A stretch of DNA of 14,741 nucleotides, from contig NC_092066.1 of assembly GCF_039877785.1 (NCBI RefSeq), forward strand, positions 5,443,152 to 5,457,892. Reading direction: 5' to 3'. The notes below the pieces were generated by a model. The model was not told the origin of the DNA. It worked only from the letters and a program-made list of their open reading frames with translations, and did no database searches. Below are positions 1,704-13,663 of the stretch, piece by piece (the first letter of the stretch is position 1; each line of letters starts with the position of its first letter). Made by a program: the position numbers and the translations under genes. The stretch comes from Chaetodon trifascialis (lineage: Eukaryota).

Positions 1704-2160
1704 CCACTTTCCAGATTAGAGTTTATATGAGGAACTAAAGAGCTGAAAAGACAAAGCTAGTGTGACACAAGAGGAAGATAAACCCGAGCCACAACCTGGC
1801 AACCCAGAAACTGTGCTTATTAATGACTGACTGGGAAATCACTGACAAATCAAATTAATAAAGGCTTTTGCCTCATTATAGTTACAAAGTGAAGATCCTT
1901 TATAAAAAGGGATTCACTGTACAAGTGGTACTAAAAATATTAGCGGAATATTATTAGAAAATATCACAACATAAGTGACAGTAACAGAAAAAAGTGGGGA
2001 TAAGGTCACCATGAATGAATTTAAGTCGGAAAATGAAAGCAGGTTAAAAATGCATTTGTGCAGTTCGTTAACATGTACTAATAAAAGCAGCAGTAATTAC
2101 TGCAGGTACCTCCCCTGAGTGGATTTAATTTTCTGCATCACATCTTCTGTTCATTAAGAC

Positions 2161-2188
2161 AAAAAAAAAAGAAGAAGAAGAAAAAAAA
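2161..2188. repeat. A-rich/(GAA)n simple repeat
   Basis: Ten A, then gaagaagaa, then g and eight A. It lies immediately upstream of the CpG-rich block. Confidence 0.9.
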
Positions 2189-2345
2189 GCATGTCAGAGC
2201 AGGCGTGTGCGCGCGCAGCAGAGACAGTGAGCTCGCGGTGCAGAGAGCGCCGCTGTGACAGTGGGAAGCACAATCCGCGTGCAGCCAGCACGAGGCGAAC
2301 ACCTACCAGCGTGCAGTGAGCGATGACTGGACGCAAAACGGTAAG
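2189..2345 (+). promoter_or_regulatory. CpG-rich promoter-like block / candidate 5' exon (possibly bidirectional)
   Basis: About 150 bp with roughly 14 CpG dinucleotides (gcgcgcgc, ctcgcgg, cgccgctg, ccgcgtg, ggcgaac, cagcgtg, gcgatg, gacgcaaaacgg). The flanking kilobases are almost free of CpG. The block ends in an ATG at 2323 with a purine at -3, followed 18 nt later by a gtaaga splice donor. On the minus strand there is an ATG at 2336 followed after 30 nt by a gtaggt donor. Orientation is therefore ambiguous. Confidence 0.4.
2323..2340 (+). CDS. candidate first coding exon (ATG ACT GGA CGC AAA ACG | gtaagag), product unknown
   Basis: ATG in an acceptable Kozak context (gagcgATGa), followed after 6 codons by a GTAAGA donor at 2341. 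A 42-codon upstream ORF runs 2191-2319 and ends just before this ATG. I see no homology. Eighteen nucleotides are too few to test coding statistics. Confidence 0.2.
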
Positions 2346-2576
2346 AGCAGCGCTGCAAACGTTGCCTCACTCAGCTTTTAATGCCTTTTAGATGGGAAAA
2401 AGCTGTAAGCTGAAATGTTGTAATGAAGACTTACGGAGACGTTACCACGAGATTTATGTTGAGTTTTATTTGTAAGTTTGAAGAAAATGCAGACTCTGTA
2501 TTTACAGTGTTCAGTTAGATCTCCTCAAAAATCTGCTTAAATTGCTGTTCCTTTCTCTAAGCAATGAGAGTAATGG

Positions 2577-2596
2577 AAAAAAAAAAAAAAAAAAAG
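2577..2596. repeat. poly(A) homopolymer (20 nt)
   Basis: An uninterrupted A run. It may be the tail of a retroposed element, or a plain homopolymer. Confidence 0.9.
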
Positions 2597-4232
2597 CTAA
2601 GTTCTGAGAAGTGTACATCACTGTTAATGTTAACAGCTGCCTGTAAGCACTCAAAGTGACTCCAGCTGAGACATGAACTATTGTTTGGTGGATGCAGGAT
2701 GTGCAGTAATGCTTTACAACCACTAACTTGTCAAGAGCAGATGATAAATGAGGAAAATTCTCCCTGGATGGAGAGGAAAAGTTGGACAACTCTCCAAACT
2801 GTTGTTAAGAAATGTTATAATCAGATCTAATTTTACCTCTGTATCATGGATTACACAAGAACTTGTTTTGATTGTGCAACGAGGATTTGAGGAAGGCAAT
2901 TTATAGATACGCTGCTCTATACTGTAGTAAACTCTTACCCAAATGGTTCCCTGTGATATTTTTTCCTCTCTTATTACTTATGGGACTCTTCCTTTCCACT
3001 CCTCTGCAGTCCACTGATTTATGTAATGTTGCTGGAATGAAAAGTGCTGCGCAGGGGGTGGAAATCTGGCTTTCTGAGAGTCAAACAGATGAGGAGGCTT
3101 GTTTTAATCATTAGTCTCATGGTATCACTGGCATGGAGCTTGTGCAGGGGAATCATGGTTTGTACTCGCAGGCCTCGGCCGGTGTTCCCATTGCACAGAG
3201 GTGTGTGCAGTGAGCGCTGAATCACTGTTAATTTTACCATTTTCCTTGTTTACTCATATGCATCTGGCTATTAAAGTGGTAATAAACAAGGTTTGTATTG
3301 TTCCAAAAGAAATTACCCTGATATGCCTTTGGGAGGTTGATCAGGTTGTTGATCAATACCAGTGACTCAGCAATTATTTCACCAGATGCTCAGATTGTTT
3401 GTTCAAGTGCTCAGATGGAGCGTGGTGCTACAAGCAAGAGACAGCAGCGAGCCAAGATTCGTTTCGCCCTAAACTATTTGTTTGCCCTGGCAGCGCATGT
3501 TCGCCTGGGTTTCACACCAGGGGAAGAAATAACAAAAGCATTTCAGTTTTAGTGGATTGGATGAATGGGTTTCGTCCATTTGCCACTACACGTATGTGGC
3601 AAAAATGACTAAAAAACAAAGGGTGACATGAGGCCACGTTGCTAGAGAAAGCATCATTTCATAAGGGACACAAATTTTGACGCAACACTTTTGTCCAGTT
3701 TTGCACTTCGGTCCTGACCTTGGAGGCAGTCGTTGAATCAGCTGGGATGAGGTCAAACGCTCCCAAACAAGCGAGTAAGTGGACTTTTAGTTAAAACTGT
3801 TATCTTGAGAAAATAATCTGAGCTCGAGGTTCAATTGCAAGCGTTTTCTGGAGCTTTCAACCCTACAATCTTCATCATTGAATGGAAATTGCTCAGCCAA
3901 CAAAAAGAAGGAGCTATTAGCCGACCTTGAGTTGAGATTATTTTGCCAAACGAACACTACGGTACTTAGCATCCTGAATTACTGCCCCTTTGCTCAGTGG
4001 CTGTGTTGGACCTGTCACTCAGTATCGGCCCACCACATGCTTTCATACACATTAAAGTGATTTCATACCTGGCTGAGGTGAAATAGTTGGCATATCAATA
4101 AAAAAAGATTGATGGAAATACAAATACAACTTCCTCACATTCTTGCCTTATTTCTATCAGCATAACATGGTTCTACTCAAAGGAACAATTTGACATTTTG
4201 GGAAATTGCTGAGGGTTAGGTTAGGAGCTCTG

Positions 4233-4751
4233 TGCCGCTCTCATACCTGCCCAGTAAATATTAAGCTACAACTAGCAGTTGGTTAGCTTTAACAAAGGCT
4301 GGAAAGAGGGGGAAACAGCTGGACACATAAACATTAAAGTGACAATTGGTGGCGTTATAAAGGACTGCATGCTGTACTATTTTGTGGCAAACAGCAGTTT
4401 ATACGTCCTCCCAGCATTTCTATTCATCATCATTGGTCATTCATTGTTGGTTTCCTGGTAACATCTGTATTAATGAATGAATGAATATAAAGCTACAGCC
4501 AGCAGATCGTTAGCTTAGCATAAAGACTGGAAACGGGGGAAACAGCTTGCCTGACTCAGTCTAAAGCTACAAAATCTGACTGCTAACAAATATCCTGATA
4601 AATTAGCTTTAGTGTTGCCAGTTTTTATGTTTGAACTATGGACAGAACCAGGCTAGCTAACAGTTTACACCTGCTTCCAGTCTTTATGCAAAGCTATGCT
4701 AAGCTAATCACCTCCTGGCCCTATGCTGCATGCACAGATATGAGAGTGGTA
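4233..4751 (+). mobile_element. MITE-like nonautonomous DNA element with long TIRs (copy B, carries a duplicated left arm)
   Basis: Left terminus tgccgctctcatacctgcccagtaaatattaagctacaactagcagttggttagc... Right terminus ...gctatgctaagctaatcacctcctggccctatgctgcatgcacagatatgagagtggta. The reverse complement of the right end aligns to the left end (ccactctcatatctg vs ccgctctcatacctg). A second copy of the left arm lies at 4484-4555 (aagctacagccagcagatcgttagcttagcataaagactggaaacgggggaaacagcttgcctgac). The matching right arm is at about 4650-4749. The internal segment 4556-4650 matches the internal segment of copy A (gtctaaagctacaaaatctgac vs gtcttaaagtaacaaaaccctac). Confidence 0.6.
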
Positions 4752-5679
4752 TCAACTCTTGGCAAGAAGCTAATTATTCAAAAAAATGTCAAACCATCCC
4801 TTTAACCAACAAACCCCAAAACTAAAACAACACAAATGGCAGCAGTATGAAAAACGGTGCTTGTAGAAGAAACCTGACATAAGTTAAGTACGTTACATAT
4901 GAGACCTTACGTACATGATACAAGTCATTACTACGTAAGTTATTTATGCACACACATTAAAATAATTGACTTCATTGAAGTCACCTGGCTCTGAGAGTCT
5001 AATAGTGTTGTGGACGGGTTTACATTGAAGTTAGCTCCTGAGTTGGCGCATCTCCCACAGACCCTGAAGGGTACCTTGTGCACTGGTATGAGGTGCCAAG
5101 GTGGCGGGGAACAAAATGCGGGAATTAGAATGATCAGGAAGTTAAATTTTGGGAAAAGTTGGAAACTTTCCAGAGTTACTGGATCTTTCGATGACGTAAT
5201 CTTGTTACGCCCTCTTTGTACTATTTGCATTAAACCAGCTGATGGAAATACCTGTTGAGCCAAACTTTCTTTTGTTGACTTTTTGGAAATGTGATTAAAA
5301 TTTGAGCAATATTCGGATGGACACGACTTATTACTGCAATTCCCACTGGTGGCCGACAGCGGTCATTTAAAGTCATAGCTTACTTACTAATACTCCTTTA
5401 ATACTTGTGTTTACATTACGTAGAACAAGATGACCTAATGTATTTAATTAAGGGCTCAAAGTCAGTGAGAAACTCTGATCATATGGGACGTATTAGTGTT
5501 AGGCAAGAAACAAATTTGCTTTCTCTTACACAAATATTTGTAACCATGTCTTTGAAAAAACAGCCCGGAGTCTGAATTTGTCACATCCGATCTCAAACTA
5601 GTTTGGACTGCTGTTTTATGACAGCGGTGCCTGTGTTCAGAGCGCGCTGATGAAATGGTTCGTCACTTGTTTTTCTCAG

Positions 5680-5846
5680 CTGCCCGGTCCCTACATACCT
5701 TTCACGGACATTAACTGTGATTGCCCTACAAGCAGAGCTCATTTTGGTTTGGTTCAGAAATATTATTGCTGGCTAGAGGTGCGTGCTCTTTTGCAACACC
5801 CAAGGGTGACACAGCTGGGTAATACGACCCGCAGCGAGTATCAGAG
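5680..5846 (+). CDS. candidate internal exon (acceptor ttgtttttctcag| ; donor cagag|gtaactg), product unknown
   Basis: Strong polypyrimidine-plus-CAG acceptor ending at 5679. Good GTAACT donor at 5847. One frame of three is open across all 167 nt (LPGPYIPFTDINCDCPTSRAHFGLVQKYYCWLEVRALLQHPRVTQLGNTTRSEYQ). The segment sits inside a local CpG cluster at 5560-5850. Openness of one frame over 55 codons is not statistically compelling. Confidence 0.15.
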
Positions 5847-6944
5847 GTAACTGTTTCAACATTGTTTCTGGTGTGTATTAACTGGAGGCCAATGTCTTTT
5901 TAAATCATGTTTACTTGGGAAATTATTTCAAGTCCCAGAACTTTTCTTCTAAGCACAGTCCAGTGAATTAGTGGGATTATAAAAGTTCCAGTTAATACAC
6001 GGAGGGTACTTTATCTGTACATGATGATTATAAACTCCAGATTCTTGCTTCGGGTTATTCTCACAATGCTTCAATGGAAAACAAATGTATTAAAGAAATA
6101 TGTGTGTGTATCTAGATTCTTTGGTTTAGATTTGGTTTCCATTGTATTTGCAGGCGCACCCTTCATCTTCCTGGTTGAGTGATTTGTTGATTCAGTGTTG
6201 GACTGCGGTGAAAGAAATACTCAGATTTATTCATTAAAGCACCACTGCAACTACAAGTTAAAGTAAAGCAGCTATTATTGAAAATGCAAAATGTTAGTCT
6301 GAAAAATAAATGGACCTGTTATGTTCAGCAAAAAATTAAGCAAAAACTTGTCTGAAGTTCATTAATTGATTGGCCAGATAGTTTATTCAGCCTGATATAC
6401 TGACTTTCATCGTTCAATTCAAAGAAAAGCATCAAAGTGTCATAAAAGCCTTGTAGTTACAACTTTTGAGATTTTTTTCACTTCATTTTAAAGCAGTATT
6501 AATCGATTTTTGGCCGCATGGGGACAGTTGAACAATATCTGACATATTAGCACCATTTAAGCTTGATGTGGCGGCTAATTTCTTACACCTATTTACACAT
6601 CCAGCAGATACAGACAACCGTAGCATTCATGTTTTTGGCCACTGGATCAATATTCACTCCCTGTTTAGTTCTGGCCTGGTTTCCATCACGTGTTGAGTGA
6701 AATTTCTGGGTCTTAACCTCTATGTTCACCAGCTAGTCGCTAACTGTGTTTGTCTGCTGGTTGGTGATGGTAGCGTTCAGTCGGTTTGTCAGAGCTCTTT
6801 TGCTGAAAACAGCTAACCTGTGTTGATGAGTGCGGTGAGAGTGAAGCAAAATAGTAAAATCGTGGGTTGAACAACCAAAATAATGATTCAAAATAGACTA
6901 AAAGACTTCGTAAAGCTGGGACGAACTGCAGAGTTGGTGAGAAT

Positions 6945-7035
6945 CCTCTATGGGTTTGACATATTGTAGTACAATTCAATTGTAGTATAACAAATATGAT
7001 TAGCACAGCTTAGCCTTAGCTTTAGCATTAGCCCA
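6945..7035 (+). mobile_element. probable solo terminal fragment of the same MITE-like family
   Basis: acaaatatgattagcacagcttagccttagctttagcattagcc aligns to the left-arm consensus aaatatcaagttacagccagcagctggttagcgtagcttagcataaag. No matching partner arm lies nearby. Confidence 0.3.
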
Positions 7036-8169
7036 CAGAGATGCATGTCTGCAGGCTAAAGCAGTTTGACAACCTCTTGAACCTACTTCTTGAAGCTTTT
7101 TTCTTCTTGAAAAGTTTACATTCTGGAGGTGAAGACATGAGGCTTTTATAAAGAATAACACAATCAATTAGAAATTAATTTACTTTCAGTTCCTATGAGG
7201 TCTTCAGTGGGAGGTTAAAGTTGCAGCAAAGAGAGGAGAATTTAATTAAATCACTACAGCAGCAATAAACAACATTGTAGCATACATATTGGTGAATAAA
7301 TCTAGCAGCAAAGAGGAACAGTCGTGCTAAATGAGAATATTATTATGTCGGATAAAAAGTATATGTCTTACAGAGCACGTAGTCACAGCCAGTAGTAACA
7401 AAATGTACTGTTTTTACATGAGTTGGTGTTGGGACACGTACACTAAAAAGAGGAGCATAGTGCATGTGGAGGGAGTTGTTGCAATAAAGTTTAAATATTA
7501 TTGCTGGGAGCCACCTAAAACTAACATACAGGCATAACAAATATAGCAGTTAAATTAAAGAGATCTGTCAAGATTAATGACGCCTCGCAGAATCTGTGAA
7601 GCAGACGTACACACAGCTTTGCTCGTTTCATCCGCTCCCACAGGAAAACGAATTTACATTTCAAAGTTTTAGGACAAAAAAAATAAAAAGAGGAACGATT
7701 CAAAGGCTTCAGAGGCCCTGCTGGAAACACAGGTAGAAACGTCTGGTGTGAACTTAAATGAGAGTTTTCAGTGATGCTCAGACAGAAAAGTTTTGTTTTA
7801 GCAGCAACAAGTTAGAATCCCAACCTGGAACAAGTGTACGCTCACAGTATTAATTCAATTTTGAGTAATTTAATAAGCTTTTCTTCCCCCTTACCGAACT
7901 CTCTTGGCTTCTTTCCTGCCCTTCTAATCCCAAATGTATTTGCAATATGACTCCAAAACTTCCACTCACTTTTGGAAAAAAAGCTATTGCTATCTGCTAG
8001 CTGTGGTCTGGCACAAAACTCTGGGCCTCGTTCATGCCTCAGTAGGCCCCCGTCCCCCTTTTAATACAGCATTGTCTCTCCAGCAAGTAAACACATGCAT
8101 CTGTTGTGGTTTGTAGGTTAATCAGTATTGAAGTGCTTGTAATGCAATTGAGATGGTTTACTTCTCAAC

Positions 8170-8550
8170 ATGCAGCGCTTAAGTGTCAGAACGTTGTTTC
8201 AGTCACAGTTTTTAGGATCTCCATTATACACGCCAAGGCTGTCAGGATGGTTCTTCAGAAATGCTTGTCGGATGGTTGAATCGCTCAGAAACACCCTCCT
8301 CCCACAGTTCGATGACAGCGGACGACAGGGGGGCGCCGTGTCAGATGATTTCTGTAACTTTCTGAAACCGCTGATCCGACATTCGCACTTCATGCCGTGT
8401 GAGGCGAGAAGAGAGCCGCCGTTTGAACCTTGTTCATTCTTGACACAACTATTCCTGTCGCTTTTCACGCAAACGGCTTTTTGATTTCCAACAAGGTCGG
8501 ACAACACGTTGAGGGAACCACTTCTGATTGAGCGTAAGCCAACCATAAGA
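8170..8550. promoter_or_regulatory. CpG island-like segment with overlapping 104-aa (+) and 115-aa (-) ORFs; exon, unmethylated regulatory island or young repeat
   Basis: About 25 CpGs in roughly 380 bp (ttcgatgacagcggacgacaggggggcgccgtgtc, accgctgatccgacattcgcacttcatgccgtgtgaggcgagaag, gccgccgtttg, cacgcaaacggc, gtcggacaacacgttgagg), against a background of under 1 CpG per 100 bp. The track shows ORFs 8170-8484 (+) and 8199-8546 (-). Neither peptide matches a family I recognise. Confidence 0.35.
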
Positions 8551-8936
8551 AAGGATTACTGTGTTACTGCACCAACCCAGTCTGTTGAAATTACCTTTAG
8601 CAGCCACTTTATGAGCTTATCTTGTCAGTATCTTGTCATCCTCAGTTACATGTGGCTGTTTCTCACACCAAAGACAATGCTGCTTCATTTATCAGCAAGC
8701 TAACGCCAATAATATTACTAATACTACTAATTAGCCAAGTTACATACCGATATTAAACACTCGCTTTCCCTCTTATTGCCTTCTGTCTCACTCCTCTTTG
8801 TCTATTTTCGTTTGGTATCCTGATTTTATTATTGTTTTTTATGATGGAAATTGCGTCAAAGTCACCAGCATCAGTGCTAGCTGTTAGTGGACTAACACCC
8901 TGCGGACTAAACCATTTGCACCTTTCGGAGCGGCTC

Positions 8937-8958
8937 GAATGTTATGAATGTTATGAAT
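8937..8958. repeat. short tandem duplication (gaatgttat)x2.4
   Basis: Sequence reads gaatgttatgaatgttatgaat. Confidence 0.8.
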
Positions 8959-9414
8959 AACACTATCATGCCAATAAATTGCAGATAAAAGCAAACAGCT
9001 CCAGGCCTGTGGGGGGCCCTCGCCATTGTGGCGCTTTAATTCCACTATTACCTTCATTACTACACCCCTGTCTGGTAGTTGTGTAAAATTAATTCCCCCA
9101 TGACATCATATGGAGGAGCGCTGCACGAAGAGCTGGAAAGTGTTGCTTGATATAGTCCCGCTTGATCTATTGGCAGAAATAGTGATGCTTCACCAAATGT
9201 AGGCCATAAAAAACCACGAGATGCAAAACATAATCTATTTTCACAAGGTTTCTCAGACCAAATACCACCCAAAATTTGTTTGGAAAGACACAAGTCAGCA
9301 GCACCCACCACACCAGACTCACTGCATCACAGAAGAGTTTTAACAGGCGTCTTGTGAAGCTGCTCCTATTTCAAGCGGCTGGCAGGCCGAGGAGTCCAAG
9401 CCGAGTCCATAGGC

Positions 9415-9422
9415 GCTGCTCC

Positions 9423-9466
<44 letters not shown>
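9415..9466. repeat. (GCT)n / (CAG)n trinucleotide microsatellite: 14 perfect units at 9424-9465 plus 2 flanking units interrupted by CCG
   Basis: Sequence reads gctgctccggctgctgctgctgctgctgctgctgctgctgctgctgctgctgg. It produces the poly-Cys (+) and poly-Ala (-) ORFs in the track. The other + frames read poly-Ala and poly-Leu. The other - frames read poly-Gln and poly-Ser. Confidence 0.95.
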
Positions 9467-9467
<1 letters not shown>

Positions 9468-9992
9468 CCCTGCTGTATCTGGTTCACGGGCTCTGCTCAC
9501 ACTGTCTTGTGGTTTGGACGGAGCCACTGTCATTTCACAGGAATTTCCTGCCATCTGCGCTCAGTCAAAGTTTCTCACAGATCCACACCTGCTTGTAAAT
9601 GTTTAGGTTTGCCAGGAGGAGAGGACGGAGGGCTAGGTGAGCGCTGATGGGGGAAGAGGAAGAGATCCGCACGAGCATTTTGGCTTGAGTGTAGAAACAA
9701 TGAAATGTAAGCTCGCTTGTTTGTGAAGGAAATTTGATTTTTATTGAAGACAGCAATTTGCTGATGTTTAGATAGAATGAGGAGATGAGTGTATTCCTGC
9801 ACTCACACTCTTGCAGATATGTGTGCTGTTGTGCATGTCAAAGGTGAAGGAAGTTTTCAGATCCTCTGTTTGAATAGTATAGCTATACAACAATGCAAAA
9901 ATACTCTAACTGAAATACTGACGTTATGGAAAATAATCTTTTTCGTTTTCTTGCTGAGAATTAGATTACATTTATTTAGATGGGAAGATTGA

Positions 9993-10483
9993 TGCCACTT
10001 TCATGTCTGTAAGGTAAATATCAAGTTACAGCCAGCAGCTGGTTAGCGTAGCTTAGCATAAAGAGTGGAAATGAGGTGGAACAGCTAGCCTGACTTTGTC
10101 TTAAAGTAACAAAACCCTACCAGCACCTATAGTGTTCTCTAATCTGCTCGTTTAAGGCGTACGAAACAGTAAATATGGAAATACGTCGTTTTAGAGGAGG
10201 TTAACTGTGTGCTGAACTATTCCTTGGCCAGAAACAGTTTCCAGACAACCAGTGGAGATTCCAGGAAGTTGCAGTGTCTAGCCAGGAAGTCGTCTGGTTC
10301 ATAGCCATCTGCAAAACAACAAAGTGACGTTTTTACACTTTATTGTACAACAAATGAGATATAATGTATTTTAAAGTGTTTTTAGGAGGCTAGCTGTTTC
10401 CTCCTATTTCCAGTCTTTTATGCTAAGCTAAGCTAAGCTAAGCTACCCAGCTGCATATTTACTGTAAAGACATGAGAGTGCTA
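9993..10483 (+). mobile_element. MITE-like nonautonomous DNA element with ~90-bp TIRs (copy A)
   Basis: Left arm at 9993-10094: tgccactttcatgtctgtaaggtaaatatcaagttacagccagcagctggttagcgtagcttagcataaagagtggaaatgaggtggaacagctagcctgac. Right arm at 10388-10483: ggctagctgtttcctcctatttccagtcttttatgctaagctaagctaagctaagctacccagctgcatatttactgtaaagacatgagagtgcta. The reverse complement of the right end, agcactctcatgtctttacagtaaatatgcagctg, aligns to the left end. An internal unique segment of about 295 bp lies between the arms. No clear target-site duplication is visible. Confidence 0.65.
10422..10446. repeat. (GCTAA)n pentanucleotide microsatellite, expanded inside the right TIR of MITE copy A
   Basis: gctaagctaagctaagctaagctac. 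The corresponding site in the other arms carries only one or two units (ttagcgtagcttagc, ttagcttagc). Confidence 0.9.
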
Positions 10484-10593
10484 TACATTTTCTCATCTAA
10501 TTCTTTGCAAAGGAAATAAGTGTAATTCCCAAAATGTTGATCTTTTTACTTCAGTAATAAGCAAATTGAACATTATGGAGCCCACAAAAGTTG

Positions 10594-10615
10594 TTTTTTT
10601 TTTTTTTTTTTTTTT
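10594..10615. repeat. poly(T) homopolymer (22 nt)
   Basis: An uninterrupted T run about 110 bp downstream of MITE copy A. Confidence 0.9.
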
Positions 10616-11030: not shown

Positions 11031-13663
11031 ATACCCTGATCAGCACACTAACTGTTCCTGTGGATCGGGAAAAAACTGACTGCAAGTGAACGCAACATTT
11101 TTACCATCACCCTTCAGGACTCCGTGGTTAGGTATTAAAAGTTACATTTAAAATAGCTGTGAAATAAGTAAAGTGGACTAAAAGTACAATATCTGAAATG
11201 TAGTGTCATAGAAGTACAAGTCCTTAAGTACAGCAGCTGAGTACAAGTACTTACTGTATTTACTTTCCATTGTTGCCCTGTACAATACTCGACTTGTCCT
11301 CCCTCTCTGTTTGTGTGTGTTAACAGTGAATAGGTGCCTGATGAAGGCTCTAAACTGATTAAATAAAATGAAAATACCCCTTTTAATATGCAGATATGTG
11401 ACATGTTTCAAGAAACTACCTCCTGTCGATCCAGTGAAAATAAACAATGAGAACAAACTCTGCTGGGAGATCGGAGATACAGTAAATTAGTCATTTCTAA
11501 AAACACTATCTGATCATAGAGAAGAGTCCCAGGACGATCATTGTCTGAAGTTAACAGCAATTCAAGCCTCTTTCTAAGATGACATGCATGAATTCTTATC
11601 CAACAGCATATTCTTATTTTGTGCAACATGAGACTGTGTTATTCACCTGCTCCCACTGAGTTTACTTTGACCCAAACTGCCTCTCAAAATCCTGAAAGTG
11701 CCAAAGAATTTTTCTGGCTGCAGTCACACAATAAATAGCCTGCAGTACAGTGGAACTGTGCGTGTTACACATCAGTGATATGAATGATCACAGCGCAGAT
11801 ACTGTGATCAATGGCTTCAGGCCAGAAAGGGTCAGATAGGATGTGCTTCCAGGGCATTGTTGATGGACTGTGCGAACACTGAATGTTTATGGTGTGAATT
11901 AGCAGAGAAGCAGCACTAAGAAGAGGGCTCATGTACCTGGAACATGATCTAATGTTGAGACAGGTCCATTTTTCTATGTATCGATCTGCCCATCCTTCAA
12001 TGCATTATCATTGTCATGCAGTGAAAAGCAGTTTTAGTCACTAACGCAGATGATGGGCCATGATTCCCCTTCTGCATCATCTCAGCCTCTTCCAGCTGCA
12101 GTATCGATATAGCCGGGGATGGAAGAGTAATCTCCTCCTCTGTTGGGGTCTTGTCATGGTTTTGCATTCCTCACTTCTTTTTCAGGCTGTGTTTCCACAG
12201 CCATCAGTGGTTCTGTCACCTGGATGAGCCTCATCTTCGAGCAAAGCCTCAAGATTTATTCATGACTCAGCAGCACTGGCATTTTGTCGTGGTACTGGCG
12301 CAGCTTCACCGGCCCTCTACATTAAGCTGATCACTCGCTTGGATGGTGCAGGGATTTCTGCTTGGTATGTGTTTCTGGAAAAACTGTCATCAGCACCTTT
12401 TTCTTCGCTCTTCTTCCTTAGACTTGGATGCAGGAGTCAGACTGGCACACTGAGCCGCCATGTTCAGAAATGAGGTGGCAGCCTTAAGCCATGTGGCCTT
12501 CATCGTTGATGTTAATGTCTCCTCGGTACACCTGGACACTGGCTTGAACTCTGCAGGTGTTTCAGTACCTTCACCATCCTCTCATAGCTTTGAGTTCCTG
12601 TTTGCACTTGAGGTCAACAAGAAATAAATAGTCTTTGTTCACAGTAAACCTTTTTAGTGCCAGCCTCACCGGTCATTCAGCTTCATGCTTAAATCTATGT
12701 TGATAAGTTGTTGTGGTCAGATTTGGACGGGCACACCTGAAATGTGATGGTCACATGATGACGAGCCCTTCAAATTAAAGGTTTGGTGAGTCATTCTGGA
12801 AAAATTATATTTTCAGCTCCTTCTTCACAGCGATTACACAATAGCACCAGATTTACCGTCCCTTGCTTGCCCTCACCCCCCCTCCCCTTCATCTTGTCCT
12901 CTGCATGAGCACAAATGCCGCCTGCAGCTGATTGGCTTGAATATTGTTGTGTGGCTCGGTCTGAGTCACTTTTTATGTTTCCCATTCATATGAAATACGA
13001 TATCACCATTTTTTGTCTCTTCAGAGAGACACATAGAAGTGTTTTCTTTCAGCTTTTGTCTTGAACAACATCAAACTACTTCCTCTTTTGGTCCCGAGAG
13101 GCAGGAGCCTGTTAGATTAGATTACGTTAAATTAGCCTGTATTGTTTCCCTTGGGAGAAATTTGTCTTGGGCATTGAGACTCAGTCAACGCAGCAGCACA
13201 CAGGTACAATCAAACTACAGATAACAGGCCCAAACACACCCACATCTATAAACACCAGAGCGCGCACACTCCGACATGCTGGCACGTTTCTTTGTAGGAC
13301 CATTTCTCATGAACTCAGCTTTGTACAAAATATGCTGAGTAAAGAGGAACTAGACCCACTTCCCAGTTGTATTATTGGTCAGTATTTTTTTCCTGTTGTG
13401 GGATGATGGTTAAAGTTTGTGCTGCACAGAAAACACCTGTGGCGTAATAAAGCCTCCGCTTTCACACATACTGACTGACCAGCACCGTGGACATGATGGA
13501 GGTGCACTGACACTGCACTATCTGACACGACTTGATTTGCACTCCCCTCAGTTTCCGGGAAGGAAAGGTAGCTTTCAGCTCTGATCTACAGTGTGCGTCT
13601 TTGTGCAGCTCTGCAGCGTTCATTGTCAGGTCAGCAGCTTCAGGTTGGGCCTCTTCCCTCAGT

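Follow-up and report, generated by a model that had tools for sequence, protein, structure and literature searches.

The window analysed here, a stretch of 14,741 nucleotides, contains two related segments with inverted arms within a region of about 6 kb, which raises the question of what kind of element they represent, where it ends, and how two copies, one of them carrying a surplus arm, came to lie so near each other. Comparison of the window with itself (blastn) matched nt 10017–10114 to nt 4484–4574 in direct orientation (80%, E 1e-16), nt 10387–10500 to nt 10091–9976 in inverted orientation (76%, E 7e-13), and nt 10387–10441 to nt 4650–4707, again directly. A further direct match, of nt 4484–4547 to nt 4257–4320 (82%, E 1e-9), corresponds to a tandem pair of left arms in the leftmost copy (copy B). 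The segment immediately internal to the left arm is common to copy B and the second copy (copy A), as had been proposed in an earlier note on this DNA.

A profile HMM (nhmmer) made from 100 external arms alone, with no window sequence in it, recovered five arms in the window with E-values from 3e-24 to 5e-48, far beyond chance (Table 1). Copies A and B are each seen to be a near-complete palindrome, with inverted arms of ~170–270 bp around a variable centre, and not elements with terminal inverted repeats (TIRs) of ~90 bp as first described. The termini originally assigned (4233/4751 and 9993/10483) are internal, as similarity between the arms and to external copies runs 50–85 bp further on both sides. 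Because the arms dominate the element, which has no coding capacity, a single strand folds into a long hairpin; as single-stranded DNA, copy A gave a folding energy of −100 kcal/mol (z −8.6) and copy B −94 kcal/mol (z −3.8). The longest ORF in copy B specifies 60 aa and none is longer in either copy, while across the whole window all ORFs are ≤140 aa and a coding-potential check returned nothing resembling a protein. Ten window ORFs looked up by exact sequence had no recorded counterpart, the 140-aa ORF adjoining copy B gave no matches in a homology search, an Rfam search of the whole window gave zero matches, and the arm sequences, sought as text in published papers, were not found.

Table 1. 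Features of the two copies, their flanks and a doubtful third fragment (positions in the window).
Feature	Coordinates	Strand	Details
Copy B left flank	4177–4180		TCAA, one mismatch from TTAA
Copy B, whole element	4181–4801		621 bp; ends placed by aligning with the external consensus
B outer left arm	4181–4322	+	terminus to arm core; profile ~131–299; nhmmer E 3e-24
B spacer separating the left arms	4323–4481		without significant match
B inner (second) left arm, partial	4482–4593	+	profile 226–371; nhmmer E 3e-27
B right arm, complete to terminus	4547–4801	-	profile 127–398; nhmmer E 1e-29
Copy B right flank	4802–4805		TTAA
Doubtful third fragment	6991–7033	+	AAATATGA, then TTAGC-like repeats
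Copy A left flank	9906–9909		CTAA, one mismatch from TTAA
Copy A, whole element	9910–10549		640 bp; simple palindrome, 200-bp variable centre; right end degenerate, ~10549 uncertain by a few bases
A left arm	9910–10180	+	profile positions 127–409; nhmmer E 5e-48
A right arm	10387–10549	-	nhmmer E 3e-34; inverted relative to 9976–10091
(GCTAA) x4.8 microsatellite	10422–10445		arose from arm motif TTAGCTTAGC
Copy A right flank	10550–10553		TTCA, one mismatch from TTAA

The family extends well beyond the window. A 19-mer from the arm matches at least 120 loci in metagenome contigs drawn from three or more datasets, and in 104 of the 120 loci listed the match to copy A continues well past the seed. 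In viral contigs, a 16-mer gave 31 chance matches, none of which (0/31) extended to copy A. Similarity between the window and the external loci is limited to copies A and B, the external flanks being unrelated. The copy-bearing metagenome contigs are animal host DNA; they carry animal exons (hyaluronidase, GPCR), and among named proteins the nearest comes from the teleost Nerophis ophidion. The earlier proposal of a discrete, multi-copy, non-coding inverted-repeat family (MITE) is borne out by these data, with at least 104 external loci and ORFs of ≤60 aa; a lack of further copies, named in the earlier note as refuting it, is not what was observed, since copies exist outside the window, and the claim survives.

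In the best-conserved 74 nt, the window arms are pairwise 65–82% identical. Identity within copy B is not above that of A versus B, and the latter is not above that of the window versus copies on unrelated contigs. Copies A and B are ~20–30% diverged from the consensus, and in the external copies the identity of the outer arm to the consensus averages 63%, with a maximum of 81%. Judged by this sequence divergence, the whole family is old. A sample of unselected fish DNA (91 kb) contained one weak arm match only. With that sample as reference, a pair of copies within 14.7 kb exceeds the rough mean density, and there may be some regional clustering of copies.

The boundary of the element is sharp. 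Similarity to external copies stops where TTAA adjoins AGGAA, and conservation across the 100 external arms begins at TTAAAGGAATAGTTCAACATTTTGGGAAAT. An exact TTAA flanks 27 of 79 external termini (34%, background 0.8%), and the flank is at most one mismatch from TTAA in 56 of them (71%). The first five nt have the consensus AGGAA, with an exact AGGRR at 27/79 external termini. Exact TTAA and exact AGGRR are each present at about one-third of termini, so that the motif is one of consensus, which fits the age of the family; its ends can be written as AGGAATAGTTCAACATTTTGGG. Copy B is delimited by AGGAAC at 4181 and CCCT at 4801. Its right end reads ...CCATCCCT, the reverse complement of which is AGGGATGG (AGGRR), and its two tips are AGGAA and AGGGA. 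A search for empty sites, using the joined flanks of 11 full elements against the 120 loci listed and the window, returned a self-match only, and in five fish loci fetched via the hyaluronidase exon beside one external copy (L039), divergence prevented alignment of the non-coding DNA beyond the exons. Following the family definition, TTAA is taken as the presumed duplicated target and not as the outermost part of the inverted repeat.

T2-MITEs are defined by a TTAA target together with a terminal AGGRR. Kolobok DNA transposons, whose non-autonomous partners they presumably are, have the same TTAA target and an RR terminus (PMC6004289). The features of this group are found here, namely TIRs, small size (621 and 640 bp), lack of a transposase gene, and at least 104 dispersed loci with unrelated flanks. 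Full-length Kolobok TIRs of Xenopus, e.g., AGGACATGTCAACCCC, resemble the tip of the family, AGGAATAGTTCAACAT (PMC6004289, Table 5). We consider it quite likely that copies A and B belong to one palindromic MITE family of T2 type, both being old, non-autonomous and inserted independently of each other. By analogy with that family, recognition of the inverted ends with their AGGRR tips would fall to a DDE transposase of Kolobok type provided in trans, and the element would be excised and pasted into a TTAA site, with TTAA duplicated on insertion; we infer a Kolobok transposase as the putative mobiliser. Both copies are long dead, and their presence within 6 kb would be a chance outcome of a moderately abundant, old family rather than of local hopping. 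The copies are ordinary genomic junk, representing no new kind of element and no recent local jumping.

The earlier note had suggested local hopping of a MITE with possible hAT or PIF affinity, a view on which the spread through the 6-kb region would be recent and copy B a nested insertion. DNA transposons are known to reinsert nearby, and two copies with a possible fragment in 6 kb would be in keeping with this, yet the ends on which it was based lie inside the element, where the 8-bp sequences expected to be duplicated by a hAT element differ (B, gagctctg versus tcaactct; A, aagattga versus tacatttt). Neither an 8-bp nor a TWA duplication is present at those ends or at the corrected ones, which read TTAA followed by AGGRR. 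A hAT MITE was rejected, as the corrected ends are flanked by TTAA-like 4-mers, and so was a PIF/Harbinger MITE, as the conserved flank is the 4-mer TTAA (all four bases) and then AGG, not TWA. Local hopping is also at odds with the arms of A and B being no closer to each other (65–82% identity) than to copies on unrelated contigs, in a family that is old, and simple nesting would require a remainder of the host element to the right of copy B, where there is none. Overall, this account is very improbable. A derivation from piggyBac, whose transposases use TTAA insertion sites and could move short elements with inverted repeats, would fit the strong TTAA enrichment beside the termini, given that the superfamily is assigned from end motifs only. 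The tips of piggyBac elements are typically CCC...GGG. MITEs derived from piggyBac share the TTAA target, but the ends here are AGG...CCT, with the consensus AGGRR that is the published T2/Kolobok signature, and the terminal 16 nt resemble the TIR of full-length Xenopus Kolobok (PMC6004289), which leaves piggyBac an improbable source.

It could also be supposed that no mobile element is involved, and that a local palindromic duplication, satellite or segmental duplication has arms that recur by chance. The TTAGC-type low-complexity repeats and the (GCTAA)n microsatellite in the arms could give spurious similarity, but similarity reaches well past the low-complexity part, and the same arms of ~200 nt with sharp TTAA boundaries recur in over 100 external contigs whose flanks are unrelated. 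A satellite or segmental duplication was rejected in view of these unrelated flanks, the matches continuing past the seed and the arms recovered with the external profile, and the non-mobile explanation as a whole is hardly credible. A variant of the T2/Kolobok reading holds that the 75-nt core of the arm, its best-conserved part (AAATATGAAGCTACAGCCAGCAG...GCATAAAGACTGGAAAC.GGGGGAAACAGCTAGCC), has been exapted by the host for regulation or as a source of hairpin small RNA, nearby copies being kept for function. Xenopus Kolobok MITEs with a conserved central region have been proposed as enhancers (PMC12676858), the long hairpins are stable at the energies given above, and the core of the window arms is 75–90% identical to the consensus, as against 71–76% in the four full-length outer parts (the short outer segment of the B inner arm has 59%). 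However, higher identity in the core can come from mixed subfamilies in the consensus of the outer part, or from the collecting seed lying in the core, and the window has no Rfam match, so exaptation appears unlikely.

As to the third member of the cluster proposed previously (6945–7035), only nt 6991–7033 align to the arm. The two full copies stand; the fragment is borderline. Its local score of 28 compares with a null maximum of 27 (123 windows) and, with cheap gaps, its score of 34 compares with a null maximum of 32 (209 windows), and it was unreported by the profile HMM even at E<=10. It is either a heavily eroded piece of an arm or unrelated low-complexity sequence.

Among described systems, the T2 MITEs of Xenopus (Xmix/T2-A1, T2-C and others; Kolobok-T2) are alike in their TTAA-adjacent ends, AGGRR tips and inverted arms (PMC6004289), and in being non-coding, palindromic, of high copy number and a source of simple repeats (PMC6004289; PMC12676858). 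A palindromic Kolobok MITE of 496 bp has been described in Xenopus (PMC12676858). Compared by description only, the Xenopus elements differ in belonging to another sequence family and another host, the host here being evidently a teleost, and some of their subfamilies have near-identical young copies, whereas every copy in the present data is old and diverged. Annotation of Kolobok-T2 elements is routine for teleost genomes. In the promoter of sablefish gsdf, a Kolobok-derived MITE of ~400 bp, inserted at TTAA and present in hundreds of copies, has TIRs of 12 bp, compared with arms of ~170–270 bp, most of the element, in the present family (PMC8327909). The definition of T2 goes back to two sources, of which the zebrafish MITE Angel (Izsvak et al. 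1999, J Mol Evol 48:13) is one (PMC6004289). It is likewise a short inverted-repeat teleost element with a TTAA target and an AGGRR tip, a likeness judged on the terminal motif. Angel is said to form a long hairpin. For annotation, the corrected boundaries and superfamily (T2/Kolobok, TTAA next to AGGRR, long palindromic arms) allow both copies to be masked properly and guard against reading them as a hAT or PIF element with recent local activity; beyond this the importance is slight. Both the (GCTAA)n microsatellites to which the family gives rise and the long hairpins that it forms can interfere locally with assembly, PCR and replication.

Copy B combines two left arms with a single right arm, as the earlier note recognised and as is borne out by self-blastn and the nhmmer arms, and runs from the outer left arm through the spacer and the partial second left arm to the right arm. 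The outer left arm is 71% identical to the consensus in its outer part and 87% in the core. It shares 82% identity over the common core with the inner left arm, which is no closer to it than to the arms of copy A. Against the 120 external loci listed, the spacer gave zero blastn matches, and its score of 24 against the interior of copy A is inside the background (mean 19.6, maximum 32). A rearranged hairpin-forming element is a reasonable reading of the origin of copy B, which is a composite carrying an additional partial left arm. The most likely cause is either fusion/deletion involving two neighbouring copies or template switching promoted by the hairpin, and an 18% difference between the left arms marks the rearrangement as old.

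Comparable arrangements are found outside the window. At one external locus (L097), an unrelated spacer is surrounded by a pair of left arms and a single right arm, tandem arms occur in three others (L068, L091 and L072), and L099 carries two full elements within 2.5 kb. Composites could be produced by template switching on the hairpin during replication, which the title of Izsvak et al. 1999 reportedly implies, or by use of the internal TTAA of the arm (GTTAAATATG) as a pseudo-end; this TTAA lies near the start of several partial arms. That copy B and the tandem-arm loci L097, L068, L091 and L072 are footprints of the rearrangement or amplification of long-hairpin T2 MITEs is a speculative idea with a low probability. 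If true, a genome-wide catalogue of composites could open the way to testing how palindromic MITEs amplify, and the recurrence of tandem arms provides a minor lead on how such elements rearrange.

Copies A and B, the two copies of the MITE family in the window, are judged from their sequence to be ordinary, old, non-autonomous DNA transposons, that is, palindromic MITEs of the known T2/Kolobok type of teleosts. Self-comparison of the window (blastn) gave four matches in total: direct matches of 10017-10114 to 4484-4574 (80%, E 1e-16), of 4484-4547 to 4257-4320 (82%) and of 10387-10441 to 4650-4707, and an inverted match of 10387-10500 to 10091-9976 (76%, E 7e-13). Repeat finding returned the same arms. 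The two copies with inverted arms described in the earlier note are thus present, and self-comparison also recovers the segment just inside the left arm common to both copies and the two tandem left arms of copy B. A profile HMM built from 100 external arms only finds exactly five arms in the window (see table). The window as a whole has a G+C content of 41% and resembles non-coding animal DNA; its ORFs do not exceed 140 aa, and Rfam gave no match.

Arms, corrected boundaries and flanks of MITE copies A and B (window coordinates; profile positions are those of the profile HMM)
Feature	Coordinates	Evidence	Profile positions	Remarks
Copy A, corrected	9910 to about 10549	arm alignment with more flank
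Copy A flanks	CTAA 9906-9909, TTCA 10550-10553			tips more decayed than those of B
A left arm	9901-10180	profile HMM, E 5e-48
A right arm	10575-10387	profile HMM, E 3e-34
Copy B, corrected	4181-4801	arm alignment with more flank
Copy B flanks	TCAA 4177-4180, TTAA 4802-4805			tips AGGAA and AGGGA
B outer left arm	4117-4322	profile HMM, E 3e-24
B outer left arm, within element	4181-4322		about 131-299
B spacer	4323-4481		none	unmatched, 159 bp
B inner (second) left arm	4482-4593	profile HMM, E 3e-27	226-371	partial
B right arm	4809-4547	profile HMM, E 1e-29
B right arm, within element	4547-4801		127-398	complete

Alignment of the five arms with extra flank changed the element boundaries. Similarity goes outward beyond the termini first proposed (tgccRctYtcatgtctg), which were wrong, and passes through ...TTAGATGAGAAGAT... 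and ...ACATTTTGGGAA...; the inverted pair 4174-4204 and 10526-10556 detected by repeat finding belongs to this extension. The arm length of about 90 bp was likewise misjudged. Each copy is a nearly complete palindrome. Folded as single-stranded DNA, copy A gives -100 kcal/mol (z -8.6) and copy B -94 kcal/mol (z -3.8). In the window arms, the inner 75 nt (profile positions 226-299, e.g., 10017-10091 and 4484-4552) show 75-90% identity to the consensus, above the 71-76% of the outer part nearer the tips (four full-length window arms). This is the opposite of the usual TIR pattern, and may come from mixed subfamilies, seed position or constraint.

In the consensus of the external arms, conservation begins at TTAAAGGAATAGTTCAACATTTTGGGAAAT, with only A+T-rich noise upstream. 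For 79 external arms, termini were placed by extrapolation from the alignment to the consensus. Exact TTAA stands just outside the element in 27 of them (34%, background 0.8%), and the outside 4-mer is at most one mismatch from TTAA in 56/79 (71%). The element opens with the five-base consensus AGGAA, and 27/79 termini fit AGGRR exactly. A search for an empty site, which would show TTAA duplicated, found none in the 120 listed external loci and the window. The hAT- or PIF-like affinity suggested in the earlier note was rejected because neither an 8-bp nor a 3-bp duplication is present at the originally proposed or the corrected ends of copies A and B; piggyBac has TTAA in common but different tips. 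Of the defining T2-MITE features, the family has the TTAA flank, the AGGRR tip and TIRs, lacks coding capacity and occurs in many copies. T2-MITEs, defined by a TTAA target and a terminal AGGRR (PMC6004289, citing Unsal and Morgan 1995 on Xenopus and Izsvak et al. 1999 on teleosts), are presumed to be non-autonomous Kolobok elements because their features, including the TTAA target and RR tip, are common to Kolobok transposons (PMC6004289). The window family starts with AGGAATAGTTCAACAT, to be compared with AGGACATGTCAACCCC, which is among the full-length Xenopus Kolobok TIRs in Table 5 of PMC6004289. A Xenopus Kolobok MITE of 496 bp has a palindromic interior (PMC12676858), a sablefish Kolobok MITE is inserted at TTAA (PMC8327909), and DNA/Kolobok-T2 elements are annotated routinely in teleost genomes, an example being the conserved Kolobok-T2 element pair beside the notothenioid haemoglobin cluster (PMC12527291; PMC7915175).

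The arm-core 19-mer TTAGCATAAAGACTGGAAA matches at least 120 loci in the metagenome collection. Among the 120 listed, most contigs are in the WGS sets MDSO, MDSP and MDSQ, with a few in two JGI sets, and 104 match copy A far beyond the 19-mer seed; in viral contigs, 0/31 chance 16-mer matches extend to copy A beyond the seed. The contigs carry a rhodopsin-type GPCR exon and a hyaluronidase exon, the closest named relative of which is from the teleost Nerophis ophidion. Although filed as metagenome, contigs L001-L120 (MDSO/MDSP/MDSQ, Ga0308020, Ga0182022) clearly represent host DNA of a teleost-like animal and contain vertebrate exons. Each of the 182 blastn matches of the window to the 120 listed loci lies inside copies A and B, and the family is dispersed, since the flanks of its copies are unrelated. 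The repeat noted originally is real, and the call of a MITE was correct. Many percomorph fish genomes presumably carry very similar sequence, and the family is at most another member of the known T2/Kolobok kind. A weak arm-like match lies at 3260-3403 of the fish locus L152, about 400 nt downstream of a hyaluronidase exon, and at L039 the orthologous exon has a copy about 535 nt downstream of it; the two may represent an ancient shared insertion.

Pairwise identity among the five window arms is 65-82% across the 74 best-conserved nt, with 82% between the two left arms of B, 82% between A-left and B-inner-left, and 81% between A-right and B-outer-left. At their best, external loci match A and B (84-93% over 50-90 nt) at least as well as A matches B, so the local hopping proposed earlier is not borne out. 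The outer part of the external arms has a mean identity of 63% to the consensus (maximum 81%). Copies A and B thus read as independent old insertions, with nothing that appears young. In 373 kb of flanks around selected loci there are 2-7 further elements, and 91 kb of unselected fish DNA gave one weak match. With a rough density of one element in 50-150 kb, the probability of two or more elements per 14.7-kb window is about 0.4-3.5% by our own arithmetic, and a fish-sized genome would therefore hold hundreds of such windows. At L099, two full elements lie within 2.5 kb (2038-4536).

The architecture of copy B had been attributed to nested insertion or to partial internal duplication. Simple nesting is at odds with the absence of anything family-like after 4805. 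Neither the interior of A nor any of the 120 listed external loci matches the spacer significantly. Similar composites recur independently in unrelated contigs: L097 (56-1060) has an unrelated A+T-rich spacer surrounded by two left arms and a single right arm, L068 (1608-2398) has two right arms, and L091 (1538-1881; spacing about 100-145 nt) and L072 (434-1039) each have three tandem partial arms. Copy B is for this reason read as an old rearrangement typical of a hairpin-prone family. Two neighbouring copies could have fused or lost the DNA between them, or template switching could have produced it, and either course fits the same data; partial internal duplication by slippage is a fair option.

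Of the third fragment proposed at 6945-7035, only 6991-7033 (AAATATGAttAGC-ACAGC...TTAGCcTTAGCtTTAGCAT) aligns to the arm. Its scores are barely above the null, with a local score of 28 (null maximum 27, 123 windows) and, with cheap gaps, 34 (null maximum 32, 209 windows), and at E<=10 it is absent from the profile HMM results. About 30 nt upstream, and by eye in the right order, is GGTTTGACATATTG, which resembles the terminal motif. The fragment is doubtful and could be an arm in advanced decay or no more than TTAGC-type low complexity. The arm profile also matches 12992-13123 weakly (E 0.05, profile positions 156-265), where a very old piece of this or a related family may survive.

Elsewhere in the window, a CpG-rich stretch at 2190-2345 (gcgtgtgcgcgcgcagcag...) ends in ATGACTGGACGCAAAACG followed by gtaagag, and resembles a + strand promoter and first exon with its splice donor; were this the case, the gene's first intron or introns would contain both copy A and copy B. 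Where the G+C content of the window peaks (51%), a (GCT)17/(CAG)17 trinucleotide repeat occupies 9415-9466, with no convincing reading frame around it. A separate inverted repeat, 1376-1415/1790-1829 (CAGACATTAATAAC...; 40-nt arms, 80% complementary, 374 nt apart), has no match in the 120 listed external loci and could be an unrelated short inverted-repeat element. The stretch 11130-11270, rich in gtac/aagtac motifs (…aagtacaagtccttaagtacagcagctgagtacaagtacttactg…) and not common to these loci, resembles the terminal part of a further fish repeat family. There is also a small inverted repeat at 3798-3830/3924-3956 (33-nt arms, 76% complementary, 93 nt apart), a 35-nt T/G-rich run (1669-1703), an A19 tract (2577-2596) and, 45 nt to the right of copy A, a T22 tract (10594-10615).
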